This document shows positions 13,699-61,237 of a stretch of DNA of 64,000 bases, piece after piece. A model generated the notes under the pieces. The model saw only the letters and a list, made by a program, of their open reading frames with translations, was not told the origin of the DNA and ran no database searches. Position 1 is the first letter of the stretch, and every line of letters starts with the position of its first letter. The translations under genes were made by a program, and so were the position numbers. The stretch comes from a plasmid: sequence record NZ_CP118102.1; one strand, written 5' to 3'.

Positions 13699-13700
13699 CC

Positions 13701-14390: not shown

Positions 14391-15374
14391 CTACTCTGTT
14401 ACCGTAGCATCAACTGGGACACTCACATTGTTATCTGTGAAAACAGCTTCTGAGTTTTGGGGAGTTTGCTGCTGATCGAGCAATGAATTCCCCGTAACTG
14501 TTGAGGTCTCAGCTACCTCTTCAGTTTCCTTCTTGGTTCCGTTCTTGCCGTTACTATAATCCTGTCTTTGCTTCTCAGTCATAGATTGCAAATCACTTTC
14601 AAGCTTCTGACGATATCTTCGTTCTAGCTCCGTTGTTGCAACATCTATAATATTGGGATCAGAATCGATCAAATCTAAGACCTTTTCATTAGCAGGGTAC
14701 GTAATAGCAGCCTCATTTTGCATGTGTGGATCCACATAGGTTAATGCGTAAATTGTGGCATCATTGATATAAGCGTCCACAATGGCACTAGACATTGTTA
14801 AGATTTCTTGCTCGTCCATCTCATACCAAATGGTTCCATTGGCTAAGTCTTTAACTTTTTTCTTGGATAGTACTATGTAGTCTTGGCCTGTTGGAAACTT
14901 AACGCGGACATCGACAAATTCATCCTTCTCCAGTTTGCTTGGAAGCTCGATAAGGCGAAACTCTTGGTTTCTCAAATCATCAGGTGTTATTCCATCTTCA
15001 TAAAGCATCGAGTCGGTGATAGGTGTATTCTTTTTCAAATTAATCTTTGTGTACTTTCCTACAATATCATTAGCATGCATAACGTTTTCTGGTACTGCTC
15101 TTTTCGGAACATTTATGGTTACAAGGTCCGATTCATGTAGAATATCACCAGCCTCGTAATCGTCTGCAGCTACCTGAACGGCTATTGTTTCTTCTTCTAA
15201 CTGCATTTGTGCAAAGTCACGTTGCTCCTCAAGAATGTTTCTTTCAGTTTCGTTTTTACCCTCGATGTGTTTGAAATAGAAGTAGCCGATTGTAACACAA
15301 ATCAGTAGTACAACAATTCCGCCGATGGAGCCGGCTAAAATCAATTGTTTTTGGCGAAATCTTATTTTTGACAT
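14391..15374 (-). CDS. CpaB/RcpC-like Flp pilus assembly protein
   Basis: 327 aa. One N-terminal transmembrane helix, then a SAF-like beta-rich domain and a C-terminal Q/T/E-rich tail. Positioned between the TadZ-like gene and the ATPases. Confidence 0.5.
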   Translation of the reverse strand: MSKIRFRQKQLILAGSIGGIVVLLICVTIGYFYFKHIEGKNETERNILEEQRDFAQMQLEEETIAVQVAADDYEAGDILHESDLVTINVPKRAVPENVMHANDIVGKYTKINLKKNTPITDSMLYEDGITPDDLRNQEFRLIELPSKLEKDEFVDVRVKFPTGQDYIVLSKKKVKDLANGTIWYEMDEQEILTMSSAIVDAYINDATIYALTYVDPHMQNEAAITYPANEKVLDLIDSDPNIIDVATTELERRYRQKLESDLQSMTEKQRQDYSNGKNGTKKETEEVAETSTVTGNSLLDQQQTPQNSEAVFTDNNVSVPVDATVTE

Positions 15375-40765: not shown

Positions 40766-41521
40766 TTGGAAAACTTTTGTCACGCTAATAAGGGAGGAGT
40801 AATAGAAATGTCGTATTCGGTCTTAAACCAATCCGCTGTTAAAGAAGCCAGAAGCGTCTATTTTCATAGTTGTGACGTAAGTCGGCTCTCAGTTAAGGAT
40901 TTACTGATAGTTATCCTTGAGCCGATCGTGAAAAGCCGATCCATCTCTGCTGTAGTAGATGATATCCTGCAGAATGGGCTGCCATATCTCGGAACCTTAT
41001 CCGAGTTTGAATTATCGGTTCTTTTCGATCTGAACGAGAAACAGAGTTTCCAGTTGATGTCGATCTTTGAGTTGGCAAAGCGCATGAATACTTCTGTTGC
41101 TACTGAAGAGGTCATCATTCGATCTCCTGTAGACGCGAGATATGCCGTTCAAGATCTTAAATATTTGGATCGTGAACATTTCGTTACCCTTTATCTTAAC
41201 ACTAAGAACCGAGTGATTGGTCGTGAGACGGTATCTATCGGATCTTTGAATGCAACTTTAGTACATCCAAGAGAAGTATTTAAAGGGGCAATTCGAAAAG
41301 GTGCAGCGAGTGTTATTTTCGCTCATAACCATCCAAGTGGTAATCCTGAACCTAGCATAGAGGACATCAGCCTTACTGAAAGAATGGTGGAAGCCGGCGT
41401 AATCATAGGTATTGATGTACTGGACCATATAATCATTGGTGGAGATAAATATTACAGCATGAAGGAGAAAGGCAGACTTCCTATTCTTAAAGAAGCAAGT
41501 AATAAAGGAAGTATTGTTTGA
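40766..41521 (+). CDS. radC: RadC-family JAB/MPN domain protein
   Basis: 251 aa. 'VIFAHNHPSGNPEPSIEDISLT' is the RadC HxHPSG metalloprotease-like motif. Confidence 0.8.
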   Translation: MENFCHANKGGVIEMSYSVLNQSAVKEARSVYFHSCDVSRLSVKDLLIVILEPIVKSRSISAVVDDILQNGLPYLGTLSEFELSVLFDLNEKQSFQLMSIFELAKRMNTSVATEEVIIRSPVDARYAVQDLKYLDREHFVTLYLNTKNRVIGRETVSIGSLNATLVHPREVFKGAIRKGAASVIFAHNHPSGNPEPSIEDISLTERMVEAGVIIGIDVLDHIIIGGDKYYSMKEKGRLPILKEASNKGSIV

Positions 41522-41652
41522 TGGAAGAGTCTTAAGAGATCCCGATTTAAGGCGGATTAGCTCATTGCTTACATAAAAAGGGCAGAGCGATGAAGCTCCT
41601 CCCTTTTTTCCATCATAAATAAATTAAATACACTAATTGGAGGATATAAAAA

Positions 41653-42033
41653 ATGAGTATACTCGAAAATGCAAAAGTGATTGATACGTATTCCCGTGCC
41701 AATGCGTTAGCTGATGGATTTCTAGTTGATGTAAGCCATCTTGCTAAAGAGGTCGGTATAAAGTATCCAGTTCATATGAAACGAAATGTGTGGGATTCAA
41801 TGATTGTTCCTGATCAAACCGCTATTATTAACGGCGAGAGCGAAAAAGGGAGACTTTGGGATTGCTTGTGGATGTTTCGCATAGCAATCTCGAGCCAAAG
41901 TGGATCGATCGTACATTTTAAATTCATAGCCACTTTTGATGGAGCTGATAGATATGTATCAGTTAAAGCAATTTGTGGTCCCGGGGATAACCTCGAACCG
42001 GTGATTACTATTCTTTTTCCTGATGAGGATTAA
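41653..42033 (+). CDS. hypothetical protein
   Basis: 126 aa with an RBS 'ggaggat'. Confidence 0.35.
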   Translation: MSILENAKVIDTYSRANALADGFLVDVSHLAKEVGIKYPVHMKRNVWDSMIVPDQTAIINGESEKGRLWDCLWMFRIAISSQSGSIVHFKFIATFDGADRYVSVKAICGPGDNLEPVITILFPDED

Positions 42034-42293
42034 GTGATACCACACTAAAGAGGCATAACGATGAATTCGAGGCAGATAATTCATGTCATTGGTGAGACCC
42101 TGCCTCCCCTTTAATCTATAAGGTGATTTATCATCTGAAATATTAATCACTTGATATAGATAGATTTATAGTGGAACCTGGGGAAGAACTACCTTTGCTA
42201 TGTAAAGACGAGGGGTACATTAAATTACGACCCCGTAACACTGGCAGATTCTAATAAAAATCAACCGATAAATGGTATACTACCTATGAAAGG

Positions 42294-43469
42294 ATGGTTG
42301 TTGTGGATAATAGAGAGAATGAAAATCTTGATGATTTGATAGGAGATTCTAGATACATTCCCTTTTTACATCGTACGAGGGAATCTAACACGTCTCTGAC
42401 TGTGAAATGGATAGTTAACTTCTTGGCAAGTGTAGTTCAAATGGTTAACATCCCTTTTTTCTTTTTCCTTCTTTTAATTGCAGTTGAACAAGTCGGCCAA
42501 CAATTAAACTCTTCATTCACTATACCTTACAAGATTTTTTTTGCTCTTGGTCTTTTAATATTATTAGTTCTTGGTGAATATTTAGTACAGAGGACTCGAA
42601 AGAACATGGTTAGTCCCAGTGTTAACCTAATATGGTTTATGAACTTTAAGGGGCCTCTAAACAACCACTTTTATTCAGCAGAAAAGTCCCAAGAGTATAG
42701 TGCAAGTTTAGGTGACTTTGTGAAATATCAAGCTGACGAGTACATAAGCCAAGGGATTAAAGAGACAGAGCACAAGCTGATTCGTATGACTGAAGTCGTG
42801 CAGCAACTGAGCAATTTAGGATCCTTCCCTAATGAGACATTTGAATCCTTGAAACGTGTTATTGATATGATTGGGGACATGATGCTGAACCCAGCGAGCC
42901 CGAGAAATTCTTACTATGTTGTTTTAGACCGTATTCTAGCTGAAATAGCAAGTACGAAACCGATACAGCCTTATATCAAGCAGGGATCGATTATGTTGCT
43001 AGACGATACTAGGCACTTATCAATAGCTGGTGGTTTCCATCTGCATAATAATTCTATTCAAAACCGTAAGATCCCGTATGGTGAAAAGTTTGCTGGTAAG
43101 GTTGTAGCCGGTGGCGATGTAATTTGGGTGGATGATGTAAATAATATAGAAGCTCAAGCGCTTTACGGTTTTAAGAGTGATCAAAATCGACCATACACAG
43201 GAATTATGGGATACCCTATGCGAGAGACTGGTTTAGATAGCTATCAGCCAGTTGGTGTAATTGTGCTGCATCTTTCAGAGGATATAAGCAAACTCTTAGA
43301 AGAGGAGAGAAAAGTAGTTTCCAAAACGCTTGAAGTCTATTCCCAAGCAATAATAACTACTATAAAACTTAATAAGTATTATATACAGAGAATGATTCAA
43401 TATGGTATAGTTGGTTTAGAAGAGATTACCACTAGTTTAGAAGGAGGCGACACGAATGATGACAATTAA
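42294..43469 (+). CDS. membrane protein with C-terminal GAF-like domain
   Basis: 391 aa. Two transmembrane helices at aa 40-100. The C-terminal 'GKVVAGGDVIWVDDV...GYPM...GVIVLH' is GAF-like. Confidence 0.3.
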   Translation: MVVVDNRENENLDDLIGDSRYIPFLHRTRESNTSLTVKWIVNFLASVVQMVNIPFFFFLLLIAVEQVGQQLNSSFTIPYKIFFALGLLILLVLGEYLVQRTRKNMVSPSVNLIWFMNFKGPLNNHFYSAEKSQEYSASLGDFVKYQADEYISQGIKETEHKLIRMTEVVQQLSNLGSFPNETFESLKRVIDMIGDMMLNPASPRNSYYVVLDRILAEIASTKPIQPYIKQGSIMLLDDTRHLSIAGGFHLHNNSIQNRKIPYGEKFAGKVVAGGDVIWVDDVNNIEAQALYGFKSDQNRPYTGIMGYPMRETGLDSYQPVGVIVLHLSEDISKLLEEERKVVSKTLEVYSQAIITTIKLNKYYIQRMIQYGIVGLEEITTSLEGGDTNDDN

Positions 43470-44042
43470 ATGGCCTGTTCAGGAGGAGAAAAAGAAAGAT
43501 TCTGTAATTACTCGATATCCTGCAGATGCACGTGTCGAACCTAGTAGGGATATAAACAAACTTGTTAAAGAAATTCTCTCCGGTGATAAACCTAAGAGAA
43601 AACAAATTTGGAAATTTTAAAAAAATATCAGAACGGTTGTCGATTATCGGCAGCCGTTTTTTTGATAGATTAATAGTATAAAACCCTTCAGGCCGGACAT
43701 GCTGATAGATAACGCATTTCGGCTGGAGGTATTGGATATGGGTAAATGGTTTAAAAAACAAAAAAGCGTTATTACAAAGATACCTGTTGGAGAAAGAGTT
43801 GGCCCGACTAAAGAGCTACAAGAGATCATGAAGAAGGCTGAGAAAATCTTAGGTAAAAAGATTAATGGAGATAAGAATAGGCGGTGATTGGAACATGCAA
43901 AATGGAAGAGTTATACCCTTCACTAAGGAGCCTAAAAGGGTGAGGTTCTTAACCCAGCAAGAGATCACGAGAGCAAATCAGACGAAGAGAGAAGATGTTT
44001 TGAGAAAGTTAGATGAGAAAGACAACAACGTAAAATATAATG

Positions 44043-44085
44043 AAAAAAAACACTAAAGGTGTACGGGAACGTACACTTTTTTTGT
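44043..44085 (+). terminator. terminator-like hairpin, copy A of a 43-bp direct repeat
   Basis: 'ctaaagGTGTACGggaaCGTACACtttttttgtgtctcctttt'. Nearly identical to 49544-49589. Confidence 0.55.
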
Positions 44086-44469
44086 GTCTCCTTTTCGGCC
44101 TAAATGTGTAATAAGTCGACGATTTGAACTGTTAGTAACGAGAGGAATTTCCATTGGAACTTTAGTAACTTATTGGAATTCATCTAAAAAAGTATTAAAA
44201 TAAATCTATTGTCCTAAGTGGCGAGATTAGAGATAACATTTTTTTAAAAAAACTACTTCATTTTACTCCATTTGAACTCCAGCTAATTTGAAAGTGCTAC
44301 TTTTGTCCTTAAATAAAGAACGCTATATTCTCGAAATATGAATCCGGAAAGTGCTAAATTACCATTACCAACTGATGATGTTACCGAAAATAAAAAAACA
44401 TAAACTAAGATAGTATTAAAATATCAAACTAGATATTACAAGCAGTCTACTCTACTAGGAGGTATTGTT

Positions 44470-46244
44470 TTGAAACTTATAAGTCTAGAGATAGAGAATT
44501 TTCGAAACTTTGGTGAAGTGAAAATAAGTTTAACAAATCAAAATGTTATTTTTGGGATGAATGATGTAGGAAAAACCAATTTCATGTTCGCATTAAGATT
44601 CTTGCTAGATAAAGAAATTAGAAAGAATGGCTTTATGATTTCCGATTACTATAAGAATAACATTGAGGAAATTATTAGGATTACATTAGGAGTAGACTTG
44701 TCAGATCGAGAAAATAATGATGATTCAAAACATATTATATCAAAAGTTGGCGGAGCTCGGTCTAGCGATGAATTAGATAAGTTTTATTTTCAAATTGAGG
44801 GTGTTTATGATAAGAGTGAAGAGATTGGAATACCGAAAATGTACTGGGGAAACAATCTAGAAAAACTCATAGAGATTGGTCATAATGGATATTTTAGTAT
44901 CATCGACAATTTATTCAAAGTTGTATATGTCGATCCTGTCATTGATTTAGAAAAAACTTTTTCGAAAAATCGAACTAGATTGTTTAATCAAGCAAAACTG
45001 GATGATTCGGATATAGAAATTTCAAATCAAATTAAGGAATTAGCTAATTTACTGAACACCAAAATAAGTAGTATGAGCTTAATTCAATCTTTTCAAACGA
45101 CTATTACTGAAGAATATAAAAAGTTGAAGAACGAGCATATAAACATTGAAATGAAGTCAGAATTATCTATAAGCGGGTATTTTAGCAATCTAATACCATA
45201 TATTAAAAGAGACAATGATGATAATATTTATCCAACTTCAGGTGATGGTAGAAAAAAAATATTAGCATATTCTATATTAAATCACTTAATACAGTTACAA
45301 GAAGGAAATAAAATAATAATTTATTTAATTGAAGAACCAGAAAATAGCCTACATAGATCTATGCAAATAGCACTCTCTAAGCAATTATTCAATTCAAAAG
45401 TATATAATTATTTTTTCTTATCAACACATTCATCGGAATTACTGTATGAAATGGATAATGCCTCTTTGATAAGGGTGTATTCGCAAAGTGGTACTCTTTG
45501 TGAATCTTATATTTATCATGTTGACGAGGAATATAAAAACGTAAAAAGGAACTAAATCGTTCTTTGGCAACAGCTTTATTTGCAGATAAAGTATTACTTG
45601 TAGAAGGACCCTCGGAGAAAGTGTTATTTGAAAAAATATTAGAGGAAGTACATCCTACTTATGAGTTAGATGGGGGATTTTTATTAGATGTTAGTGGAAT
45701 TAAGTTTAAGCCATACGTAGAGGTATTGCGTGGATTAAATATTACCGTTTTTGTTAAAACGGATAATGATCTAAAGTCTAAAAGAAATCAACCCAAGATA
45801 TTTGATTTAATAGGTATCCAGAGGTGCTTGAACCTTCTGGAGGCTACTGAAGAAGAGAAAGACCCCATAGAACCGATTGAAATTGATTACTACACAGAAA
45901 ACGAGGATGGAAAAAAAGTTTTTAAACAAAAAGGAAAAGACCAACTGATTAAAACGAAGAAACTCGAACTTTTCAAACAATATAAATCTGAAATTCAGTT
46001 AATGAAAGATAACGGTATATACCTATCAAAAATTGATTTAGAACATGACCTGTATGAAGCCATCGGTGGGACAATGGAGACAGCATTAGGTTCTGATCCG
46101 ATAAAATATCTACAGGATCATAAACTAATTAATATGATAGAACTAACAAATCATCTATCGAAAGATGATTGTATCAATATTATCAAACACCCCTTATTTG
46201 AAGCCTTAAGAAAGTTGGTGTCAGATGAGATCGAGATTGGTTGA
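44470..46244 (+). pseudogene. gajA: Gabija GajA (OLD-family ATPase + Toprim nuclease) interrupted by a frameshift in an A-tract
   Basis: ORF 44470-45555 is the ABC-type ATPase half ('IFGMNDVGKTNFMFALRFLLDKEIRKNGF', Walker B 'IIYLIEEPENSLH'). ORF 45564-46244 is the Toprim half ('KVLLVEGPSEKVLFEKIL', 'KTDNDLKS'). Reading through 'aaaaacgtaaaaagg' (45535-45550) in the +1 frame gives a continuous 'EYKNVKRKELNRSLATALFADKVLLVEG'. Confidence 0.7.
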
Positions 46245-47754
46245 TCAGGAAGCTAGAGATAAAATACTAGAAGATGATAACAGTATTCTAGTATCGGCAA
46301 GCGCTGGTTCTGGTAAAACTACAATTATGGTACAGAAAATGGGCATAGAATTAAGTAAAATAACTGACCATAAAACAATTGCTGCTATTACTTTTACCGT
46401 TAAGGCAACAGAGGAAATAAAAAGGAAAGCTCAACAATCTATAAAGAAACCATTTGTAGTTATGACAAACGATTCATTTATCGAAAATGAAATAACAAGA
46501 CCATTTCTTAAAGATGCATTTGGATCTGAATACTCAGAGGATTATTCTGTTGAATATGGAAACAGATATAAGTTTACTGTTGCTTCAGAAGGTCTTATGC
46601 AAATCAAACAGAGAAAGATTTTGGGAACTTTTTTTGACAACAAAAAAAATTTTAAATTTAAACTTGCCCTTGCAATAATAAGTAAATCTGTAGCTGCACA
46701 GGAATATATTAAATCAAAATATGCAACTATTTTTATAGACGAATATCAAGATTCAGATCAAGATATGCATCGGTTTTTCATGTACTTAAAAAACGAGCTG
46801 AAAATAAAAATCTTTATAGTCGGAGATGCGAAACAGGCCATCTATATGTGGCGTGGAGCAATGAGTAATATCTTTGAACTCCTTAGCAAAGAAAGATTTA
46901 GTTGTTATGAGCTCGTGACAAACTTCAGATGTCATAAAGACATTGAAAACTACGCTAATATCTTTCATAACCCACAATACTTTAACATACAAAAAGATAC
47001 CGTTCATAATGTTATTCTGAAAAATTATCAATCTAGATATATTAATGAGTTCCCAGAGTCATTTACACAATTGATTGATGATGATTTTATTGATCTAAAT
47101 AAAGAAATAGCCATAATCTCAAATATTAATAGAGACGCAAAAAAAATCGCAGAGTTGTTAAATGAAAAAGGGTTCGATTTCGTTTTTGTTCCTAAAACTC
47201 CAATTGATGAAGGATTACCTAATGGATTTCTATTGAAAGAGTTGGCTATGTTTACTAAAAACACTGCTTATACAATTTATGATTTCATGGAAAAAGTAGG
47301 GGGTGAAGAACGAAGCCAGAGAAGAGTAGAGATAAATAAAATCATTGGTGACTTAAAGAACAAAGATAATTTAATTAAAAGTAAAATAGGAGAAATAATA
47401 AACAACCTAGGTGTTTTTTTAGGACTTTCGATTGGTATTGATGAGGTAACAAAGTTTTATGAAAGTGTAAGCGACCCACAGTTTGACATGGCCTTTCAAA
47501 TGAGGGATAAGAAACACAAAGTTATGACAGTATTTGGGTCAAAAGGGCTTGAATTTGATCAAGTAATTAGTTTCACTCGTTATTATGAAATCTATAACAA
47601 TACAAATATGCAAAATCATTATGTCTGTGTAACAAGAGCAAAGGAGAAATTTGTAATGTTTGTAGATGATGTAAATTATCATAAACATGTATTAAGCTCA
47701 GCAACGAAACACGGACTGACCAATGCAGAGAAGTTGTTTAAATACATCGAATAA
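46225..47754 (+). CDS. gajB: Gabija GajB (UvrD/PcrA-like superfamily 1 helicase)
   Basis: 509 aa. Motif I 'ILVSASAGSGKTT' and motif II 'IFIDEYQDSDQ'. Overlaps the gajA 3' end by 20 nt. Confidence 0.8.
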   Translation: MRSRLVDQEARDKILEDDNSILVSASAGSGKTTIMVQKMGIELSKITDHKTIAAITFTVKATEEIKRKAQQSIKKPFVVMTNDSFIENEITRPFLKDAFGSEYSEDYSVEYGNRYKFTVASEGLMQIKQRKILGTFFDNKKNFKFKLALAIISKSVAAQEYIKSKYATIFIDEYQDSDQDMHRFFMYLKNELKIKIFIVGDAKQAIYMWRGAMSNIFELLSKERFSCYELVTNFRCHKDIENYANIFHNPQYFNIQKDTVHNVILKNYQSRYINEFPESFTQLIDDDFIDLNKEIAIISNINRDAKKIAELLNEKGFDFVFVPKTPIDEGLPNGFLLKELAMFTKNTAYTIYDFMEKVGGEERSQRRVEINKIIGDLKNKDNLIKSKIGEIINNLGVFLGLSIGIDEVTKFYESVSDPQFDMAFQMRDKKHKVMTVFGSKGLEFDQVISFTRYYEIYNNTNMQNHYVCVTRAKEKFVMFVDDVNYHKHVLSSATKHGLTNAEKLFKYIE

Positions 47755-47977
47755 CACTTTAGTGAAACCACTTCTAATTTTATGACTCAAAAAAGAAAAA
47801 TCGTACAATGTGTTCCGATCAAGTCAAACCATAGAATTAACAGTCTGCATATATGTCCTGGATTATTTAATACAATGAATAGTTTTGATATTTAAGGAGT
47901 AGAGGTATCTTTACTCCACTTCTGCCTCTCGAACAAACAATATAGTAATGATCAGCATAGGAAAAGAGGATTGACGT

Positions 47978-49303
47978 ATGGACTTAGGTATGTACGAAAA
48001 AGATTTAATAAATATACGTTTGATTCTAGAACAAACTGAACAGATTGATCACCAAACTATAATTGAGAAATATAGAAATTACTCCCGTAAAGGTGCAATT
48101 ACATGTCCTTTTTGTGGAGAAAAATTAAAATTAAGGGCAGGAGAGATTAGAGATATACACTTCAGTCACCCAGTCGGCAAAACATGTATGAAAGCAAAAG
48201 CATACGATACATACCAAAGACAAACTTTTAGAGAAAATGAAAAACACTCCGTTATGAAGGAAATCATTTATACAGAACTTAAGGGACAAGAGCGATTTAA
48301 AAATGACCTTAAAGTTGAGTATGGTTACTTGGAAAAGGCAGAAGAAAAATGGAACATATATCCAGATATATATTTAAAGAAGGGAGATCGGGAGTTTGCG
48401 CTAAATATTATAACTAACATACAACAAATAGGAGATGAAAAAGTAGTAAATAATATTCACCGTAGAAATAGTTATTTTAAAAATAAAGGGTTAGAGATTA
48501 TATGGTTTATTGAAGAAAGAGAACTAGCAGATGATTTTGTTAATCGGGTGCTTCATCTATGGGAAGCAGAATATAATCTAGCTATGAAAACACGAGAGGA
48601 CCATATTTGGGATGAACATATTAGAGAACTTTCACTAAAATATCCCGAATATAAACTACCTGAAGTTTTCGGTTATAAATCTCAGAATGAAGCATTGCCG
48701 TTAGAGGTGCATAGTCTTTATTATATACGCTCCTTACAAGAGGGAATGGAGTTTACTGTACATCGCCTTATATTAGATAACAAAATAGCTCCTTTTCGAG
48801 CTTTTGCCTTAACAAAAAGCTACCCTTTGAAACTATCTTATGCCTTGAGCATCGACACAGAGATTTCTCTTAGTGATAAAGAACAAGAAAACTTAAATAG
48901 AAAGGAATTTGAAGAAGAGTTTATAGATAAAATCAATAATCAGATCACCAATGATAATTATGTCGGATATTCAGATTTATCAGAGTTTTCTTTCTCTTCT
49001 GTAAATTTTAATCCGTATGAACGTACAGTTATATCAGACGAAGCAACTCGTAAAATAATTCAAGAAGATGAATTAGAAAACAAAAGAGAATCACATAATC
49101 CGGATTACTACCTTAAACAAATTATAAATTTTACTATAACTGATGAAGAAGCAAGACATTTTTACGAAGGATTAGCAAGCCGACATGTAGATTTAGCTAC
49201 TCATAATTTACGATTAGATAATATTTGTAATGCTATAGAGTCTTTTAGTTCTTTTTGTAATAATGAAGCGAGAGTGTGGTTGGATAAGATCCTACGTTTG
49301 TAG
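47978..49303 (+). CDS. CoiA-like family protein
   Basis: 441 aa. 'ITCPFCGEKLKLRAGEIRDIHFSHPVGKTC' matches the CoiA N-terminal Zn-finger/'HFAH' signature (CPxCxxxLxL...HFxH). Confidence 0.5.
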   Translation: MDLGMYEKDLINIRLILEQTEQIDHQTIIEKYRNYSRKGAITCPFCGEKLKLRAGEIRDIHFSHPVGKTCMKAKAYDTYQRQTFRENEKHSVMKEIIYTELKGQERFKNDLKVEYGYLEKAEEKWNIYPDIYLKKGDREFALNIITNIQQIGDEKVVNNIHRRNSYFKNKGLEIIWFIEERELADDFVNRVLHLWEAEYNLAMKTREDHIWDEHIRELSLKYPEYKLPEVFGYKSQNEALPLEVHSLYYIRSLQEGMEFTVHRLILDNKIAPFRAFALTKSYPLKLSYALSIDTEISLSDKEQENLNRKEFEEEFIDKINNQITNDNYVGYSDLSEFSFSSVNFNPYERTVISDEATRKIIQEDELENKRESHNPDYYLKQIINFTITDEEARHFYEGLASRHVDLATHNLRLDNICNAIESFSSFCNNEARVWLDKILRL

Positions 49304-49537
49304 CCTCGAACTTTTTGTGAGGCTACATTTACATCACTGTATTTTTTGGGCTAGGATCCATGCAAAAAGACGGAAAAGTATCAATATGTAATCGTTTCTA
49401 TTGCATCTTTACTTTCAGCTTTTCGTTACTATATAATTAGCATATTGTTTAGTAACATTCTTATTTTTCTTGCCGTCAATTTCGGCGAGAATAGGTCATG
49501 CAGCTTCTGCTGTTCTATAAACATTTGTACTTTTTAA

Positions 49538-49589
49538 GGAGACGCTAAAGTGTACGGGAGACGTACGCTTTTTTTGCGTCTCTTTTTTT
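49538..49589 (+). terminator. terminator-like hairpin, copy B of the 43-bp direct repeat
   Basis: 'GGAGACGCtaaagtGTACGggagaCGTACgctttttttGCGTCTCttttttt'. A nested hairpin plus a T-run. Confidence 0.55.
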
Positions 49590-49851
49590 GTGCAAAAAAG
49601 GAGGAATGAAGATTATGATCTGTGCTGCTCCCACAACTGATCAGTTCTACTGGGTGTTTCGCGAATAATGAGTTAGAGCGATACATCGTGCTATCAGATG
49701 AGGAATTGGGAAGCTCTCATTCACTGCGCTGGGAGATGATAAACGAAGGATTCCATGTATTATGGGACTCTTCCCGTAGTCGTAAACAAGCAATCCGGTA
49801 TATGGAGCTTTACTATCCTATCCCGATTATAAAAAGTTTGAAGCCGTTCCT

Positions 49852-50292
49852 GTGCCAGTGACTTTTAGGGAAGCATGCGACTTTGTAAACAAGCATCATC
49901 CTGCCCCGCAGGGTATGAAGTTTGCACTCGGTCTCAGTAATGGAAGGGAATTAATTGGAGTCTTGATAGCCGGTCGGCCTGTGTCTCGCTTAAGAGATAA
50001 CGGAAAGACAATTGAAGTTACCCGCTTATGCGTCCACAGTGCTTATAAAAATGCATGCAGTAAGTTATATGCATCGGCTGCACGTATAGCAAAAAAGATG
50101 GGCTATCAAATGCTCATTACCTATACGTTGGAGGAGGAAGATGGAGGCTCACTTCGAGGGGTAGGATTTCAATTTATTGGAGTGACTCCAGGAGGAAGCT
50201 GGCATAGCAAATCCCGCAGCCGGCAAGACCGACATCCAATGGGACCAAAAAGGGCTTGGAGCCTGAATCTATCGTCGAGCCAGGAGGAATAA
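49852..50292 (+). CDS. XF1762-family-like small protein (GNAT-like fold?), function unknown
   Basis: 146 aa. 'HHPAPQGMKFALG...GVLIAGRPVSRLRDNGKTIEVTRLCV...ACSKLYASAARIAKKMGYQMLITYTL' recalls the conserved core of XF1762-type proteins. Confidence 0.3.
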   Translation: MPVTFREACDFVNKHHPAPQGMKFALGLSNGRELIGVLIAGRPVSRLRDNGKTIEVTRLCVHSAYKNACSKLYASAARIAKKMGYQMLITYTLEEEDGGSLRGVGFQFIGVTPGGSWHSKSRSRQDRHPMGPKRAWSLNLSSSQEE

Positions 50293-51200
50293 AGAAACAA
50301 GGAGTGTTTGTTGTGAATCGTATTGCATTGATTACAGAGTCATCTACCCGGCAAGATAGTCCAATGCCTGCTTATCGATTCTACCAAGGATCCCGCAGCC
50401 GTTGGGTAAACAACATCATTCGTTACATGGAGGTACGTAATTTTTCGGAGGACAACATCTTCTTTCTTAGTGTATTTGGGCAGCGGATCATTGGGTACCA
50501 GGAGATTATTGACCCGTACCCTGTTCGAAAATGGCACCCACGAAAGGATGAATGTACTGCTTTTGCAGAAAAGGTATTGGCTTTTATTCAACAAATTCAC
50601 CCGCTTCCCTTCGTAGAAATCCATACCGGTAAGACCATATCAGACCCCTTAAAACGTCTGTTTGACGAAAAGGGAATCGAATACCGAGTATACGGTGACG
50701 GAGTTCCTCTTGGAGCAAAGCCTACATGGTACGCGGAGTTAATTGAGAACGAGCTTACCCAAATCCGACTGAAAGAGATTGAAAGAGAAAAGATGGTCGT
50801 ATCTTCGTTAATTCAATTCCAGTCGCCACAAGAGGCAAGCCATTTAATCGATCAATTCGAAAATAAGGCACACCTATACGGAGTTGAAGCCAACATAGAA
50901 GAGCTTAAAAAATTACTTGGCAGCTACCGCCAAAAGAAAAAGGACGCGAAAAAGGCATATGAAGCATTCAACAACGTAATGGAGAAAGAAGATATTGCAG
51001 GGGAATTTAATAAGTTCCTGCTGAATGTTCAATCCCTTGCTGAACTTCATGGACATGCTCATTTTGAAGAAATAAAGAGCAGATTCGGTCAGAGTGTAGC
51101 AAAGCTTAGGTTGTACTTGATCAAGCATAACTACGCTTTAATGGCCGAATACAGCATCTTTGCTGCACTGCAGCGTATGCAAATAGCGCTTCTTAAATGA
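50256..51200 (+). CDS. hypothetical protein
   Basis: 314 aa ORF. The true start is possibly the ATG at ~50358 ('MPAYRFYQGSRSRW'). Coiled-coil-like C-terminus. Confidence 0.3.
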   Translation: MEPESIVEPGGIKKQGVFVVNRIALITESSTRQDSPMPAYRFYQGSRSRWVNNIIRYMEVRNFSEDNIFFLSVFGQRIIGYQEIIDPYPVRKWHPRKDECTAFAEKVLAFIQQIHPLPFVEIHTGKTISDPLKRLFDEKGIEYRVYGDGVPLGAKPTWYAELIENELTQIRLKEIEREKMVVSSLIQFQSPQEASHLIDQFENKAHLYGVEANIEELKKLLGSYRQKKKDAKKAYEAFNNVMEKEDIAGEFNKFLLNVQSLAELHGHAHFEEIKSRFGQSVAKLRLYLIKHNYALMAEYSIFAALQRMQIALLK

Positions 51201-51230
51201 TGAGTAAATAAAAAAGACATAGGAACGAGA

Positions 51231-51995
51231 GTGATAGATGTGATCAAGTGTACTTCTGATATTTCTCTAACAGAGCTGAACTGCGAGTGTGAGGGGGCAA
51301 AAGACTGCCCAATATGTAACGAAAAAGGTTCTGTTACGGTTTTGGACTTTTCAGAAGCCTCTCTGTATTGGCATGAAATGCTCGAGAATTTCGTTTATCG
51401 CCTAGAAGCTGATTATCAGTATTCTAACTTTGTCACGGATATTTATCGCATCCAGGATAAGTTGTTTGTAACTTATTTAGGCGGGGAATTTAAAGAATCG
51501 CAATCTTTCTGGTTTGATATTCAATTTCTCAATACATTAGAGCTGAATCTGAATGATCCATTACAGCTTGAGACGGTTACTCTTGATGGAATTCATGATT
51601 GGTCCACTGAGGTTTACAACACCATTATGTCTGCCGATTACAAGGGAACACTTGCTGGATCTGGGATACTAGATTGTAACGAGAAAGAGGAGAAAAACAC
51701 AGAGATATATATAGATTTAAGTACTCAAGTCATAATTTCAGTAAAGATGTTTCAGGATCTTATTCAGGAGGTCACTCCTTATATGGGTCCTACTGCAGTT
51801 GAACGAGCTGCTGCAGACTTTCAACTTTGGACGAATACTCCCTATTCTGAATATGTTAGGCGTTCTGAAGCAGGAGAAGATGCTCATGAAATTCTTGGAG
51901 AAGATTTTGCTGGTTCAACCTTGTATTTCGAGACAGCTGTTATTGAGCCGTCACCGAATACAGATGAAAAAGAGTACTTAGTAATTAAGGAGTAA
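51231..51995 (+). CDS. hypothetical protein with N-terminal Cys cluster
   Basis: 254 aa. 'LNCECEGAKDCPICNEKG' gives a possible zinc ribbon. Confidence 0.3.
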   Translation: MIDVIKCTSDISLTELNCECEGAKDCPICNEKGSVTVLDFSEASLYWHEMLENFVYRLEADYQYSNFVTDIYRIQDKLFVTYLGGEFKESQSFWFDIQFLNTLELNLNDPLQLETVTLDGIHDWSTEVYNTIMSADYKGTLAGSGILDCNEKEEKNTEIYIDLSTQVIISVKMFQDLIQEVTPYMGPTAVERAAADFQLWTNTPYSEYVRRSEAGEDAHEILGEDFAGSTLYFETAVIEPSPNTDEKEYLVIKE

Positions 51996-52223
51996 AAGAA
52001 ATGACAAATAAAAGTAGGCTACTCCATACTCTCTAAACTCAGGTGTGAATGAAGGAACGGATTTATTTCCGTTATGCGGTTCATTGTAACCCCCTTCTGC
52101 GAGCTCCCTATTGGGATAAGTAGCACTTACGTTTCTCTAATCGAGGATCCGTAAGAGGACAGATAGAGTCCTGCCTATTTCCGAATCGATAAAACCGATT
52201 TCGGATAATAGGAGAGATGGAAG

Positions 52224-53051
52224 ATGGCACTGAAAAACAATGTTGTACAGACGGGTCTACGATACTTCGGAGGTAAGGCAAAACTTGCGCATTCAATTAT
52301 TCCTTACCTACCTGACCATCATTGCTGGGTTGATTTATTCGGCGGGGCTGCCAATATGACGATTGCCCGTGAGCCCAGTAAAGTTGAGGTGTTTAATGAT
52401 AAAGACGGAGATCTTATCAATTTTTATATGATGCTGCGGCAGCAAAAGGAGCAACTGATAGAAGACCTAGCCTCTTTGCCAACGAGCCGTTTTTTATATG
52501 AGACCTGGCTTCGTGAAGAAATGCCGGAGGACCCATATGAACGCGCTGTTCGATACTTCTATCTGCTCAGACAAAGCATCATTCCTATGCCTAATCAACC
52601 GAGCGGCTGGCGTGCTGGAAGAGTAAAGAACTGCGCTTCAGATTACCAGTCATCGATACTCAAGTTGGACTCTTTTGAGAAACGCTTCCGCAATGTCATG
52701 ATTGAATGCTTAGACTACCGAGAAATCATAAAACGTTATGATGGACCAGAGGTGTTCTTTTTTATTGATCCTCCTTATGTTGGCCGTGAGAATTGCTACA
52801 AAGGTGGTTTCCGGCAAGAGGATCATGTGGAACTAGCTGAGATGCTTAAGCATATAGAGGGGAAGTGCCTTGTTACCTATTATGGTGACCCGCTTGTGCT
52901 TGAGCTTTATAAAGATTGGAATTACGTGACCTTAGAAGCGAAGGTTGGTTCTGTTGTGAAAGCATCAGAAGGCCAAAAACGTAGGACAGAAACCGAGTAT
53001 CTGTTTATGAACTATTCACCTACTATGTCAGGACAGATTTCATTCTTCTAA
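52224..53051 (+). CDS. dam: Dam-family N6-adenine DNA methyltransferase
   Basis: 275 aa. The N-terminal 'LRYFGGKAKLAHSIIPYLPDHHCWVDLFGGAANM' is the AdoMet motif and 'FFFIDPPYVGRE' is the DPPY catalytic motif (D12 class). Confidence 0.8.
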   Translation: MALKNNVVQTGLRYFGGKAKLAHSIIPYLPDHHCWVDLFGGAANMTIAREPSKVEVFNDKDGDLINFYMMLRQQKEQLIEDLASLPTSRFLYETWLREEMPEDPYERAVRYFYLLRQSIIPMPNQPSGWRAGRVKNCASDYQSSILKLDSFEKRFRNVMIECLDYREIIKRYDGPEVFFFIDPPYVGRENCYKGGFRQEDHVELAEMLKHIEGKCLVTYYGDPLVLELYKDWNYVTLEAKVGSVVKASEGQKRRTETEYLFMNYSPTMSGQISFF

Positions 53052-56365: not shown

Positions 56366-59300
56366 TTATTGATTTCTCCAATACTTCATCCCAGCTTTAG
56401 GTTTGTAATATGTTCTTATGTGACCTTTTCTATCTAATACTCCGAATTCATTTGTTTTTGGATTGTAATAGAGTCGATCTCCATTTGCTCTTGATTTCTT
56501 TAATACGTTCCGGCCATTTTTTGCTTTGAAGAATTTGTTAGCTTTTGTTGAGTATGCCCCTAAACTAAGTTTTTTAGCACCAAATTCATTCAAGTGGTGT
56601 TTATGAGCATTAGCAAATTTCATATTTCTAAAATTATAGTTCTTAGATTTAGATTTAGAAACTCTTCGAGCTGTGTAAGTAGCCTGTTTCGCTAATTTTT
56701 TTGGAGCTTGTTTCTTTAAATAATACTTCACTCCAATTTTAACTAATATAAATGTTACTTGAATTATAGAAAAGGGATTATCGCCATCATGGTCAACCAA
56801 ATTCACTGGATTATTATCACTATATGAATATTTATTCTGGTTAATTGGTGAAGCACTATCTCCAGAATGTGAATCCATAGTTAGGAACACAGCTAGATCT
56901 GGATCATAATATCTCGCTGATAACAGATATAAACCAGTTTCATCATCATAGCGATATCCTGCGTAACGATAAGGGTTAACATCAGCAAGTTCACCACTTT
57001 GGGATATTATATTTCCCCAAGCATCGTAATCATAAGAAGCAACTATGTTTCCTGAATTATCAGTTAAACTGACTACGTCCCCGTGACCATTTAAGTGATA
57101 GTAATATGTTTGTCCTTCAAATATAAATGCAACTGGTACGTCACTTTCATCCCATATATATTCAATTACTATATTCCCGGATTCATCAGTTTCGTAGATA
57201 ACTTTATCATCTTGGTAGAAATAGTTGCGTTTTTTATTTTTCGTCTCAGTACTGATACGTTTTCCATTATTATCATATCTAGCACTAAATATAGTAACAT
57301 TATCAGTGTCCTTAATTTCCGTTAACTGATCAAAAACGTTATAAACATATACGTTTTGATTATCTTTAACTAAGTTACCATTCCGATCATACTCAAAAGC
57401 GGTACCATTAAATGTACTAATTTGATTAACTTTATTAAAAGTTAACTCATTGGTGGTAACATCGGAACCCTTTGTTACTTTTTTAGTATCTCGATTACCC
57501 GTGAAATCATACGAATACTCAATTTTAGTACCATCAGTCAACGTTTCTGAAATCAACTGACTAAGGTTGTTATACTCGTATTCAACAGTTCCAGTGGAAG
57601 CAGTTACTGACTTAATCAGATTATTTTGGTCATAGGTATAATTGTATTCGTTGATGGCTGTTCCATCAGAACGATAATTTGCATAACCAGTTAAATTTTT
57701 AGCTTTATCATATTCAGTTTTTGTTGTTGCCCCATTACCTAGAGTAATATTTTTGAGGTCATCAGCGGTGTCATAACCATAGCTAATAATTTTAGTATTA
57801 TTGAAATACAGATCTGTGAGTCTATCAAACTCATCGTAATTATAGTTAATTACGGAGTCAATAGCATTAACAGAGTACGTTAGAGACTTAACTTCCCCAT
57901 TTTCAAAATATAGATATTTTTTTGAACTTCCTCTATCTATTTCTGAATCAATAGAACCACTATCCGTGTACTTAATAACTTTTTCGTCATCGTTAATGGT
58001 TTCCAAATTTCCATTCGGATCATATGTGTATGAGTAGAGAACATTGTCATTTTCTTTGGTGGCAACCAATTGATTCAATTCGTTATAAACATAGGTAAAA
58101 ATCCTGCCATTCGGAGTCTTAGTTTCAATAAGATTACCATTAGAATCATATTTATTATTTGTAGTGTTGCCCAAGGCATCTGTAGACGATAAGATCTGCC
58201 CAGTTCCATTGTAAGTATTTACCTCAACACTACCATTTGGATATGTTGTTCTTAAAAGGTTACGATTATTATCGTAGTCATACGTAGTAACCTGTTTGTT
58301 TGCATCAGTAACTTTTACAAGTTCATTTTGTTGATTATATTCATAATAACTCGTATTTCCCTTACCATCAGTTTTGCTTAATTCATTCCCTTGTTTATCT
58401 GTTACCGATATTGTAATATTTCCATTCCCATCGGTTGTAGTTAATACTTCATTCCCAACTGCATTGTAAGAGTATGAATCCATAGATCCATCGGGTTTAT
58501 CAACAGTTTTTAAGTTTCCATATTGATCATAGGTATGCTTTGTTACCTGACCTTTTGAATCAGTAATGGTATCAACTTTACCCTTATCATTATAAGCATA
58601 GGTTATAACATTCCCACTTGGATCTGTTTCTGTAGAAACAAAATTTAAAGAATTATACGTGTATTTTGTTGTTCGATTTTCTTCATCAGTCTTCTCAAGA
58701 ACATTACCGTATGAATCATATTTTTGAATATATTTCTTGCCGGTAGAATCAATAAATATCTCTGGATTATAGTTTGTATCATATTCAACCTGTTCTTCTG
58801 TTCCGTCTGCATAAACAATTGATGTAGGGGTATAATTGCTATCCATGTGATACTCAGTTACATTACCTAGAGCATCCGCAACATAAGAGGTTCTTCCAGC
58901 AAATTGATAGCTTTTTCCCGGTCGTTCTAAACCATCTACACCAGAAACGTCTGTCGATGGCTCCTGAACTTTAGCAACATATTCATTCTCATAAGTAAAG
59001 TCTGTCCTGCGGTTATTAGGATCAATAACTGTAGTAAGGTAACCTTCTGGGCTGTAACCATATTTTGTTCGGTTATAAGTTCCGTCAGTAGAATACTGAT
59101 CCACCGAAACAAGTCTTTTATTAATATCGTAATTGTAATCTGTTTTTTGTCCTTCTAACATCGCATAGTCAACTAAACCACTCGTTGTATAAGTGAATAC
59201 TAGTTCTCTACCCGTAGCATCGACTATACCAGTTAACTTTCCATCTGTTGAATATTTGTATTCAAGTTTATTTCCATATAGATCCTGTTCATAGCTTATT

Positions 59301-61237
59301 CTTGCAGTCACTACACTAAGTTCGTTATCTATATTTACAGTATCAAAATGAGTAATATATCCATTTTTATCAGTAATGGTATATCCTGTTGTTCCTTTGT
59401 TTTGATCCGTTACTTTTGTTAACGTTAGGTATTTACCTGGTGGAGAAATATACTTCTTTGTAGATTGGTCATATTTGAAATAATGAGATGTTCCATCAGG
59501 TTCTGTATAAAGAACATTCCCTGTTTTATAAGCATCATAGATGCTTTCGTACCCGTTATAAACCCATCCATATCCAAAAGGTGTTAATTCTACTGATTTA
59601 GAATTATATGTTCTACCAAATACTAGAGCAGTATCCCCCCGTGAATCTAGATTATAATCTGTATACTGAATAACGTTATTACCAGTGCCCAAGTTGACGT
59701 TGCTAGTTCCTTCTCCCAAACTAATGCCATCAAAAGTCCAATAATCTTCCAATCCTAGACGACTTGCTGAAGTGTAGGTCACACTAAGAAGAGGAGTATT
59801 TTTTGTGTTAGCGGTATCATCACCGGAAATAAATTTTTTATAGGTATTTGTGGTTTCAGATGAACTTTTGAGTAAAAAACCTAAATTCGAATCGGGATTA
59901 TTAATCCACTTTTCCATCATGTACGGTGTGAGAGACCACTTATAATTGACATCCAAAGATGTAAGAGTATCTACATATGCAGTAGAAACTTGGGAGGCAT
60001 TAAAATCTCCGCCTTGAGAATTCCACTGTGTCCCGGCATCAGAGTACATCCATGAAGCTGAATATTCTGTCCATGGTGTGCTTATTGAATGCAAGGTTAC
60101 ATTCATACCAGTGTCATTAGATACTGAAGCCAACCATAAATTTAAATCAGCTGTTAAAACATTTGCTCCTTGAGGAATTGAACTAGTATCAAATCTAATT
60201 AATGAACGAATAATATTATCTTGGGTAGCGTCTTTGTATAAACCTACCCCTAAGGTTGTTTCTGTTGGTGCTGTCTGTTTTGGGAATGCACTTCGAATGT
60301 TTGTATCAGAAAGTGCATATTGGGGCTGATATTTAACTATTGTAGGATCTAAAGTTACTGGATAGACCCTCTTGTCACTGAGCAACCATTCCTGATTGGG
60401 GATCAGGTCTATATACAACTGATTATTTTCAGATCTCAAATCGTACTTAATATCATATGATATAGCTTCTTCTGGTATAGTAGATATTTCTTCGTTCTCT
60501 TTGTATCCATTAGGTTTAAACGAATCATACATAATAGGTGCTTCAATATAATACTTTATATCACCTGACTCTTTATCTAATAAAAGGATTGAGCCATTCT
60601 CTCGTTGCTTGTATGTTAAATTACCTAAATCTAATGAGAAGGTATAGATAACCGGTGTTTCCAGGTTAGCAGGTTTATCTTTTAAAATTATCTCCTCTTT
60701 AATACGATCGTTACCCAAGGAATATTTTAGATCCGCATTCTCAAAAACTTCTGGATAGATTACAGTATTGTTGGAAACTTCCGCATCTATGGCAGTTTCT
60801 ATTTCGGAGTAAGTAGTATTAGTAACCAATTCCTCCTTCATTGGAGTTAAATTTATCTCATAGTTATTTTCTGAAATTTCAAGTAGGTTGTCTTCGGAAG
60901 TGTGTTGTTTATCTAGCTTTACATGAAAAGAGTGGGCGTTATTGTAAATAGATGTATTATTCTCTTTAAGAGTTGGTTTCCATTTCTCTATGTTTTCATC
61001 AAAGTAATGGATCGGTGTTGGAGAGATATCCGTTGTTAATGTACCATTGCTGTTTAGGTATGTTTTTGAATATTCACTTCGTTTTCCTATTAATTCCTGC
61101 CTTTCATTTTTGATATTTACGACATCAGATGTCTTGTTATCTTTAACTTCTGCTATCGCTTTTGGATTAATTGCTGTTGAGGTCAATAATGAACCTGCCA
61201 TTACAAGAATAATGGACTTTTGAAATAACCTATTCAT
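56366..61237 (-). CDS. secreted Rhs/YD-repeat polymorphic toxin (WapA-like) with variable basic C-terminal toxin domain
   Basis: 1623 aa with signal peptide 'MNRLFQKSIILVMAGSLLTSTAINPKAIA'. Dozens of YD repeats ('YTYDANGN', 'YEYDALGN', 'YDYDNNRN' and so on). Rhs core boundary 'RYAGYRYDDETGLYLLSARYYDPDLAVFLTMD'. The last ~170 aa are a distinct Lys/Arg-rich domain. Confidence 0.85.
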   Translation of the reverse strand: MNRLFQKSIILVMAGSLLTSTAINPKAIAEVKDNKTSDVVNIKNERQELIGKRSEYSKTYLNSNGTLTTDISPTPIHYFDENIEKWKPTLKENNTSIYNNAHSFHVKLDKQHTSEDNLLEISENNYEINLTPMKEELVTNTTYSEIETAIDAEVSNNTVIYPEVFENADLKYSLGNDRIKEEIILKDKPANLETPVIYTFSLDLGNLTYKQRENGSILLLDKESGDIKYYIEAPIMYDSFKPNGYKENEEISTIPEEAISYDIKYDLRSENNQLYIDLIPNQEWLLSDKRVYPVTLDPTIVKYQPQYALSDTNIRSAFPKQTAPTETTLGVGLYKDATQDNIIRSLIRFDTSSIPQGANVLTADLNLWLASVSNDTGMNVTLHSISTPWTEYSASWMYSDAGTQWNSQGGDFNASQVSTAYVDTLTSLDVNYKWSLTPYMMEKWINNPDSNLGFLLKSSSETTNTYKKFISGDDTANTKNTPLLSVTYTSASRLGLEDYWTFDGISLGEGTSNVNLGTGNNVIQYTDYNLDSRGDTALVFGRTYNSKSVELTPFGYGWVYNGYESIYDAYKTGNVLYTEPDGTSHYFKYDQSTKKYISPPGKYLTLTKVTDQNKGTTGYTITDKNGYITHFDTVNIDNELSVVTARISYEQDLYGNKLEYKYSTDGKLTGIVDATGRELVFTYTTSGLVDYAMLEGQKTDYNYDINKRLVSVDQYSTDGTYNRTKYGYSPEGYLTTVIDPNNRRTDFTYENEYVAKVQEPSTDVSGVDGLERPGKSYQFAGRTSYVADALGNVTEYHMDSNYTPTSIVYADGTEEQVEYDTNYNPEIFIDSTGKKYIQKYDSYGNVLEKTDEENRTTKYTYNSLNFVSTETDPSGNVITYAYNDKGKVDTITDSKGQVTKHTYDQYGNLKTVDKPDGSMDSYSYNAVGNEVLTTTDGNGNITISVTDKQGNELSKTDGKGNTSYYEYNQQNELVKVTDANKQVTTYDYDNNRNLLRTTYPNGSVEVNTYNGTGQILSSTDALGNTTNNKYDSNGNLIETKTPNGRIFTYVYNELNQLVATKENDNVLYSYTYDPNGNLETINDDEKVIKYTDSGSIDSEIDRGSSKKYLYFENGEVKSLTYSVNAIDSVINYNYDEFDRLTDLYFNNTKIISYGYDTADDLKNITLGNGATTKTEYDKAKNLTGYANYRSDGTAINEYNYTYDQNNLIKSVTASTGTVEYEYNNLSQLISETLTDGTKIEYSYDFTGNRDTKKVTKGSDVTTNELTFNKVNQISTFNGTAFEYDRNGNLVKDNQNVYVYNVFDQLTEIKDTDNVTIFSARYDNNGKRISTETKNKKRNYFYQDDKVIYETDESGNIVIEYIWDESDVPVAFIFEGQTYYYHLNGHGDVVSLTDNSGNIVASYDYDAWGNIISQSGELADVNPYRYAGYRYDDETGLYLLSARYYDPDLAVFLTMDSHSGDSASPINQNKYSYSDNNPVNLVDHDGDNPFSIIQVTFILVKIGVKYYLKKQAPKKLAKQATYTARRVSKSKSKNYNFRNMKFANAHKHHLNEFGAKKLSLGAYSTKANKFFKAKNGRNVLKKSRANGDRLYYNPKTNEFGVLDRKGHIRTYYKPKAGMKYWRNQ

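Follow-up and report, generated by a model that had tools for sequence, protein, structure and literature searches.

The cargo block and its features

A block of genes encoding a Gabija defence system (gajA and gajB) and a CoiA-like protein of 441 amino acids (aa) was investigated on the plasmid of sequence record NZ_CP118102.1. The window is the entire stretch of DNA analysed, 64 000 nucleotides (nt) in length, and coordinates refer to it unless another locus is named. Positions 41000-53000 are 100% identical to two plasmids of Paenibacillus urinalis, NZ_CP118110.1 (190 kb) and NZ_CP118105.1 (206 kb). The block at 44.1-49.3 kb has a guanine-plus-cytosine (GC) content of 27-32%, compared with 38-47% in both flanks, and two similar hairpins, copies A and B, lie around it. 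The cargo of the P. urinalis slot totals ~5.3 kb at 30% GC and comprises two separate modules. We consider it likely that gajAB and the CoiA-like gene are independent modules stacked in a variable slot of the plasmid, with A and B as transcription terminators. The features, all on the plus strand, were as follows.

43865-44056: small open reading frame (ORF, 63 aa), the last of the upstream genes; copy A includes its stop codon (44054-44056)
44050-44095: repeat copy A, a hairpin of two tiers with a T-run after it (repeat finding, terminator scan and fold)
44470-45555: gajA 5' fragment, ATPase domain, 361 aa (PADLOC GajA PDLC00081, E 1.7e-160, positions 1-360 of 574; Pfam AAA_15)
45543-45547: A5 homopolymer, site of a 1-nt deletion in gajA (A6 in 9 of 10 sister sequences)
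45564-46244: gajA 3' fragment, OLD-type Toprim nuclease domain, 226 aa (PDLC00081 positions 366-573, E 5.6e-71; Pfam OLD-like_TOPRIM)
46225-47754: gajB, UvrD-like helicase, 509 aa (PADLOC GajB PDLC00122, E 1.3e-182; Pfam UvrD-helicase)
47978-49303: CoiA-like protein, 441 aa, with a zinc finger (C43, C46, H64, C70), a PD-(D/E)XK-type core (E86, D130, E139) and a variable C-terminal helical region
49299-49327: hairpin straight after the stop codon of the CoiA-like gene (fold)
49383-49541: conserved backbone leader (homology to cassette-free Paenibacillus provencensis, 93.5-97% identity)
49542-49587: repeat copy B, a two-tier terminator hairpin closing the leader (repeat finding, terminator scan and fold)
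49852-50292: XF1762-family (Mom-like) gene, the first backbone gene rightward (NCBIfam XF1762_fam, E 3e-48; PHROG Mom-like; Pfam)

An earlier reading, made from the letters of the window (hereafter the sequence-only reading), had placed only gajA, gajB and a CoiA-like gene between the two copies. Those gene identities were upheld, but gajA is split, and ~240 nt of non-coding DNA separate the CoiA-like gene from copy B, the last 160 nt of which (49383-49541) are plasmid backbone.

Two hairpins with the properties of terminators

The same reading described a near-identical direct repeat around the block. The repeat exists, although its coordinates had to be corrected to 44050-44095 and 49542-49587. 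The copies are identical at ~41 of 47 positions in a gapped count, with two 1-nt indels (an extra G in A and an extra loop base in B); ungapped identity is 74% and the core aligned by BLAST matches at 34 of 38 positions. Both copies carry the elements that had been named for them, TGTACGGGA(G)ACGTAC, a T7 run and G(T/C)GTCTC. Their description as terminator-like was also borne out by consensus and fold prediction, in which both score as intrinsic terminators and have folding energies far below those of shuffled controls (copy A, free energy of folding -19.8, z -3.9; copy B, -26.9, z -5.9).

The shared fold comprises an outer stem, ACRC/GYGU, and an inner stem, AAAG(G)UGUACG/CGUACRCUUU; in copy B the outer stem is extended to GGAGACGC/GCGUCUCU. 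None of the six differences between A and B is at odds with the fold: they comprise a compensatory pair (ACAC:GUGU to ACGC:GCGU), a change from A-U to G-U, one base inserted in a stem, one inserted in the loop, and an exchange of U and C on the 3' side of the lengthened outer stem, at a base that pairs with G in B and is unpaired in the minimum free energy fold of A. Copy A forms the left edge of the low-GC cargo, at the point where GC falls, and is potentially a bidirectional terminator, given the A8 run upstream of it. Copy B is separated by 14 nt from the AAGGAGG ribosome-binding site of the gene that follows it. Both copies are most likely transcription terminators that would, in vivo, shield both the cargo and the operon downstream of it from read-through. 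A 15-nt exact inverted match was seen between the interior of gajB (47131-47145, AGAGACGCAAAAAAA) and the 3' half of copy B (49569-49583), and is probably due to chance (E 0.014 in a small local database).

A degenerate pattern spanning A and B identified these two sites only in the 64-kb window and matched none of 100 shuffled sequences. Two copies were present in the ~184 kb examined of the 190-kb plasmid, a single match (P. provencensis) was obtained among 185 579 species genomes, and metagenome and viral contigs gave none. These counts led us to reject a species-wide terminator resembling a repetitive extragenic palindrome, one part of the outcome on which the sequence-only reading had said its proposal would fail; the repeat is private to one plasmid family. 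Copy A was seen only in P. urinalis-type plasmids, and the three related plasmids described below have other sequence after the small ORF. Comparison of the hairpins and leader with Rfam yielded sub-threshold scores only (GibS, 39 bits against a gathering score of 115; VrrA, 29 bits against 50).

An empty site and a variable plasmid slot

The P. provencensis match is a 253-kb contig with 98.6% identity to the window up to 42039 and 97.4% from 49383 onwards. The slot region of this contig contains 3.4 kb of other genes, with neither Gabija nor a CoiA-like gene, and a single hairpin, which is of type B and has the same 160 bp in front of it as copy B of the window. A small ORF homologous to that in the window precedes the empty site (76% nucleotide identity over 43891-44020, about 53% at the amino acid level). 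Because the empty site has both copy B and the 160-bp leader, the right edge of the cargo is placed not at B but at ~49382, about 55 nt beyond the 49299-49327 hairpin, with homology to the empty site starting at 49383. Copy B consequently does not abut the cargo; of the two copies only A does.

Plasmid pAZOPL1 of Paenibacillus lautus and a plasmid of Paenibacillus sp. Cedars share the backbone gene order and retain the leader core and copy B, and their slots are filled by an unrelated 316-aa gene or by a reverse-strand 380-aa gene. Copy B is therefore a backbone element, present with or without cargo. Between the small ORF and the leader, a cargo hotspot of the plasmid family is the interpretation best supported by these alignments, and a slot with an empty site and three different fillings offers a clean place to study the swapping of defence genes on plasmids.

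The whole segment from DUF6573 to the leader varies (window 42040-49382; P. provencensis 2871-6286; P. lautus and Cedars loci ~2400-6990 and ~1740-6990). In the other three plasmids it encodes proteins of ~160, 380 and 375 aa of unknown function, one with a Phage_ABA_S domain; the P. urinalis segment has a GAF-like protein instead, and the small ORF is the sole gene shared. The left flank at 42040-44056 differs from all three related plasmids, as a diverged allele. An empty site with a left flank of the P. urinalis type was not found, and all sufficiently long contigs with the identical GAF-like protein also have Gabija.

The leader carries a promoter-like site at 49408-49437 (TTTACT-18-TATAAT, predicted by consensus in a promoter scan), a conserved 9-bp hairpin (CTTGCCG...CGGCGAG) and a second hairpin in which bases have changed across plasmids while pairing was retained. 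The unit of promoter, leader and copy B is kept in four Paenibacillus plasmids, in P. lautus and Cedars as its core, and the conservation of leader structure is that of two effective lineages only. The unit lies at 49383-49595 in the window, at 6287-6501 in the P. provencensis locus and at ~6990-7139 in the P. lautus and Cedars loci. The structured leader (~150 nt) and its terminator are a candidate small RNA or transcription attenuator; the unit stands before the Mom-like and methylase genes, plasmid genes with a resemblance to anti-defence genes, and is a candidate for an RNA that regulates them.

The sequence-only reading had proposed that the block moves as a module by recombination between its terminator-like ends. 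Two similar hairpins in direct orientation do flank a low-GC block, and the plasmid has no further copies of them. Nevertheless, copy B and the 160-bp leader remain at the empty site and beside other cargo, the identical CoiA-like protein occurs in one and the same context in all of at least 22 contigs, relatives of gajAB and of the CoiA-like gene elsewhere lack such a hairpin, and the block lacks terminal repeats, with no gene for a recombinase found within or next to it. A search for the repeat around different cargo, as that reading had suggested, returned no second bracketed block: the one genome match is the empty site, P. lautus and Cedars keep B only, and A was found nowhere else. We consider it very improbable that a mobile module ends at the hairpins.

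Other routes of insertion were also considered. The ends of the block showed no repeats beyond chance (inverted, p 0.93; direct, p 0.25) and no target duplication, and no transposase gene was found in 44057-49382. A transposon or insertion sequence was rejected: the block has no terminal inverted repeats, no target-site duplication and no transposase. A site-specific cassette of the integron attC-like or dif-module-like kind was rejected as well, with the right boundary 160 bp before B, no recombinase and a single context. The two junctions resemble each other (GTGTAATA and AATATGTAATCG; the empty site reads GTGTAATATGTAATCG), but over a stretch too brief for any test.

Copy A is closer to copy B of P. 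provencensis (38 of 41 positions) than to copy B of its own plasmid (34 of 38), which suggests that it descended from a B-type hairpin. These identities would also fit an insertion scar, in which a B-type hairpin was duplicated on acquisition of the cargo or of the segment 42040-49382, for example through recombination between diverged plasmids of the family, and was then kept as an insulator. The restriction of A to the cargo-bearing lineage and its location exactly at the drop in GC point the same way. Set against this, no intermediate forms were found, the 160-bp leader was not duplicated, the mechanism is unspecified, and the flank carrying the small ORF is diverged (76%), so A could be the native terminator of that flank. 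On balance we think a scar rather unlikely, and prefer stacked modules between terminators.

The Gabija operon and its frameshifts

The 3' fragment of gajA lies in another frame than the 5' fragment, with a stop codon between them, and gajB overlaps the end of gajA by 20 nt. Where the window has A5, both P. urinalis plasmid records have A6. Over 21 kb, a Logan assembly of SRR23080378 does not differ from the window, A5 included. Seven other contigs have A6 and an intact GajA of 591 aa, and gajA of CP118110 is likewise intact (591 aa); gajA of CP118105 has a separate frameshift, from A6 to A7, near 45630 (~45630-45636). Of the 49 homopolymers of at least 6 nt in the 18 kb compared, five are in gajA, and two random indels would both fall in this gene with p ~0.01.

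The two frameshifts hint at selected loss of a costly gene, with homopolymer sequencing error as the alternative, and suggest that Gabija may be a burden on the P. urinalis plasmid. A further contig in which both gajA and gajB are broken was discounted as evidence for recurrent decay of Gabija, homopolymer deletions being found throughout it. As a consequence of the frameshift, Gabija is probably inactive in the isolate from which the window derives.

GajB is 76-77% identical to Paenibacillus GajB proteins. Its closest relatives are in Paenibacillus roseipurpureus (76%) and Paenibacillus sp. MMS18-CY102 (70%), in plain two-gene operons that have no CoiA-like gene. DNA homology to these operons (78.6% and 73.7% respectively) is confined to 44469-47740, from the start of gajA to just before the stop codon of gajB. 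In P. roseipurpureus (CP130319.1, locus 1331-8530) two tandem Gabija-like pairs lie between TniQ genes and adjoin Tn7-like genes (TnsA-like and TniB); the second pair is the nearest relative of gajAB in the window.

A family of CoiA-like proteins

In Pfam, the CoiA-like protein matched the CoiA N-terminal zinc finger only (PF25164, CoiA_N; 28.0 bits against a cutoff of 26.3; residues 34-70). No match was found in PADLOC (including the PD-lambda models, at E <= 0.01), PHROGs or NCBIfam, and no relative of solved structure was detected by sequence. PF06054, the CoiA nuclease domain (CoiA_nuc), did not match the protein significantly and matched 7 of 27 homologues weakly (best E 0.01). A word-seeded search gave 33 CoiA-like clusters, all from Paenibacillus where the source was named; a family profile added Exiguobacterium, Planococcus and Psychrobacillus. 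An exhaustive HMMER search of 1.84 billion proteins yielded 205 representatives, and its weak tail consisted of canonical CoiA proteins (CoiA_N plus CoiA_nuc).

Residues invariant in an alignment of 27 homologues include C43, C46, H64, C70, E86, K102, P129-D130 and E139. Comparison of the CoiA-like and CoiA alignments by hhalign gave a match of 99.2% probability (E 8e-20) over residues 30-193, in which the zinc finger, the Glu of the first helix and the P-D of strand 2 (P129-D130) align with CoiA. The E-x-Q of strand 3 in canonical CoiA aligns with N143-x-I145, and the invariant E139 lies four residues earlier. An AlphaFold2 model of the protein had a predicted local distance difference test score (pLDDT) of 79.7; Foldseek returned Bax1, Hjc and R.BspD6I, all weakly, and the predicted fold is nuclease-like. 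These data indicate that the CoiA-like proteins are a small uncharacterised family with remote homology to competence CoiA.

The neighbours of CoiA-like homologues were as follows.

P. abyssi: SIR2, TIR, AAA_13, PLD and Tn7-like genes
P. roseipurpureus: CTD1/MComp1/SMC_N, PLD and an AAA_11/12 helicase
P. ihuae and P. donghaensis: flanked by spoVR in both species, and on the opposite side by a DUF4011-type helicase in P. ihuae and by TnpB in P. donghaensis
P. glucanolyticus: PDDEXK_4
Paenibacillus sp. p3-SID867: integrase, TIR and SRAP
P. lautus pAZOPL1: HEPN ApeA-like protein and SRAP
P. amylolyticus plasmid: SEC-C protein and DNA ligase
Exiguobacterium sp. AT1b and E. aurantiacum (locus 7001-8296): CoiA-like gene immediately behind groES-groEL, bordering an island
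P. larvae ERIC III plasmid NZ_CP019656.1 (locus 7932-15072): CoiA-like gene, IS3 transposase and a Gabija of a different subtype, within 7 kb

The Exiguobacterium islands contain HNH, Schlafen-type helicase and prokaryotic Argonaute (pAgo) genes in one species and a type I restriction-modification system in the other. A conserved 94-aa gene follows the CoiA-like gene there, before the variable defence island begins.

The sequence-only reading had left two options for the CoiA-like gene, a third component of Gabija or an independent, uncharacterised gene possibly acting in defence, and had proposed a search of homologues for association with defence islands. That search placed homologues in variable or defence-rich regions, in keeping with the second option, and outside the P. 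urinalis plasmids 10 of the 11 contexts examined had no Gabija genes in view. The exception is the P. larvae plasmid, where a 717-aa GajA (PDLC00072) and a 578-aa GajB (PDLC00127) are found 2.2 kb from the CoiA-like gene, beyond IS3; it is a second, independent co-location of CoiA-like and Gabija genes.

Partnership with Gabija, as a third component or a synergistic neighbour, would accord with this co-location and with the position of the gene beside gajAB in the window. It is contradicted by the ten other contexts and by the closest gajAB operons, which lack a CoiA-like gene; in P. roseipurpureus the CoiA-like homologue and gajAB are 2.5 Mb apart. In the window a 223-nt spacer with promoter-like sites separates the gene from gajB, and the DNA homology of gajAB stops before this spacer; in P. 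larvae the gene order is reversed and IS3 intervenes. A functional partnership is accordingly judged highly unlikely, and the proposal of a third component was abandoned. Because the neighbours of its homologues vary, and because the closest gajAB operons do without it, the CoiA-like gene behaves like a module of its own that recurs in variable regions rich in defence genes, and not like a fixed third gene of Gabija.

A role outside immunity was also weighed, in which the protein would be a recombination or repair nuclease of mobile elements and hotspots that processes branches or D-loops in the manner of CoiA. Competence CoiA is a D-loop resolvase with a zinc finger and a PD-(D/E)XK domain (Hardy et al., bioRxiv 10.1101/2024.02.06.579203), and the homology to it is remote but clear. 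Some neighbours are of the repair type (SRAP, ATP-dependent DNA ligase and DNA polymerase IV), and in Exiguobacterium and two Paenibacillus species the gene keeps a constant place next to a core gene (groEL and spoVR respectively), bordering a variable region. However, the regions that it borders are rich in defence genes (SIR2, TIR, PLD, type I restriction-modification, pAgo, HEPN and Gabija), its distribution is sporadic (the 205 representatives mentioned above) and the canonical catalytic E-x-Q is not conserved. We regard a purely non-immune function as doubtful.

Interpretation of the locus

Under the arrangement that we favour, independent modules in a variable slot, a gajAB operon of the Paenibacillus type and a CoiA-like gene would have been stacked, in the P. 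urinalis lineage, in the slot that the small ORF and the leader delimit. Copy A would halt read-through from the upstream genes into the cargo, and copy B would end the leader transcript and keep any transcription leaking out of the cargo from entering the Mom-like and methylase operon. Copy A would be a lineage-specific paralogue that arose from a B-type hairpin by duplication. The left flank (42040-44056) is itself a diverged allele, which makes exchange of a larger segment between related plasmids plausible. For the CoiA-like protein we infer a possible role in defence, as a structure-specific DNA-binding protein or a nuclease.

Several points count against this interpretation. The origin of copy A is likely to be causally linked to the insertion of the cargo, as the only two paralogous copies flank the cargo, which is hardly a coincidence. 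The left flank differs too, and A may have come with that flank, come with the cargo or arisen in place. The terminator and promoter calls are consensus and fold predictions. The alignment of E-x-Q with N143-x-I145 and the displacement of E139 indicate that the active site of the CoiA-like protein is altered, and its nuclease activity is therefore uncertain. Lastly, the co-location in P. larvae leaves room for a loose functional link with Gabija.

Gabija itself is already known, and its presence here adds little; the modest novelty of the locus lies in the CoiA-derived family and in a plasmid hotspot with a conserved leader. More speculatively, and as a suggestion that we hold only tentatively, zinc-finger PD-(D/E)XK CoiA-like proteins may represent an unrecognised stand-alone family of immune or hotspot nucleases in the Bacillales. 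Such a family would derive from the D-loop resolvase with a remodelled active site, reside at the borders of defence islands (groEL, spoVR and large plasmids) and sense or cut branched DNA of invaders, possibly in synergy with Gabija. If the CoiA-like protein does protect against phages or plasmids, a recombination nuclease of competence would be linked to immunity.

The plasmid setting

The P. urinalis plasmids range from ~190 to 205 kb and carry conjugation-type genes, represented in the window by a VirB4-like ATPase, a type IV coupling protein and an M23/glucosaminidase wall hydrolase. Between these genes and the cargo lie RadC, DUF6573 and the GAF-like protein; to the right of the cargo are the XF1762/Mom-like gene, DUF6884 and Dam and Dcm methylases, and a PAPS (phosphoadenosine phosphosulfate)-reductase-like gene is among the backbone genes around the slot. 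A prophage origin was rejected: the phage collection gave no DNA match, the CoiA-like gene had no phage protein match, and the setting is a conjugation-type plasmid.

The XF1762/Mom-like protein of P. provencensis has an N-terminal extension in one long ORF, and so does its Cedars counterpart as annotated (230 aa). When 49608-49861 of the window was compared with 6455-7201 of the P. provencensis locus, an extra T (GTGTTTCGCG against GTGTTCGCG) was found to disrupt this frame, and what follows from it in the window is a 146-aa gene with an upstream ORF fragment. Comparison with one near-identical sister plasmid over 21 kb revealed 30 single-base differences, 25 of which cluster at 57500-59200, inside an RHS/YD-repeat gene of 1623 aa (56366-61237, minus strand); this part of the gene is probably a diversifying toxin region. 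At 40683, upstream of radC, an (AT)n repeat differs by one unit from both plasmid records.

Comparison with known systems

Anti-defence gene clusters have been reported in plasmid leading regions (Samuel and Burstein 2024, PMC11541004). The orphan Dam and Dcm methylases, Mom-like, RadC and PAPS-reductase-like genes around the slot are of the same kind, but the cargo of the slot is a defence system and not an anti-defence gene. The term leading region is applied to this plasmid by analogy only.

Gabija of the window corresponds to the type of Bacillus cereus VD045 in that a gene for an OLD-family ATPase-Toprim protein is followed by an overlapping gene for a UvrD-like helicase, and the two give near full-length matches to their top PADLOC models (GajA, PDLC00081; GajB, PDLC00122). 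The helicase gene lies downstream in the operon as expected, whereas GajA is not encoded as one polypeptide in the window, its gene being frameshifted between the ATPase and Toprim domains. Gabija of the window also differs from the VD045 type in its setting, a plasmid with conjugation-type genes, where orphan methyltransferase, Mom-like and RadC genes cluster around it.

The CoiA-like protein resembles competence CoiA in having an N-terminal Cys/His zinc finger, recognised by CoiA_N, followed by a PD-(D/E)XK core. It is longer, at 441 aa, and its C-terminal half is different and variable. Competence CoiA is encoded by a chromosomal gene of the competence regulon found broadly in Bacillota, whereas the CoiA-like gene is plasmid-borne in the window and its family is sporadic and located in variable regions. 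A precedent for a CoiA-type domain in immunity is PD-lambda-4B, a validated defence protein of Escherichia coli whose N-terminus is like the zinc-finger region of CoiA (Vassallo et al. 2022, PMC9519451). PD-lambda-4 differs from the locus described here in being a two-gene system, in which the resemblance to CoiA is limited to the first ~66 residues.

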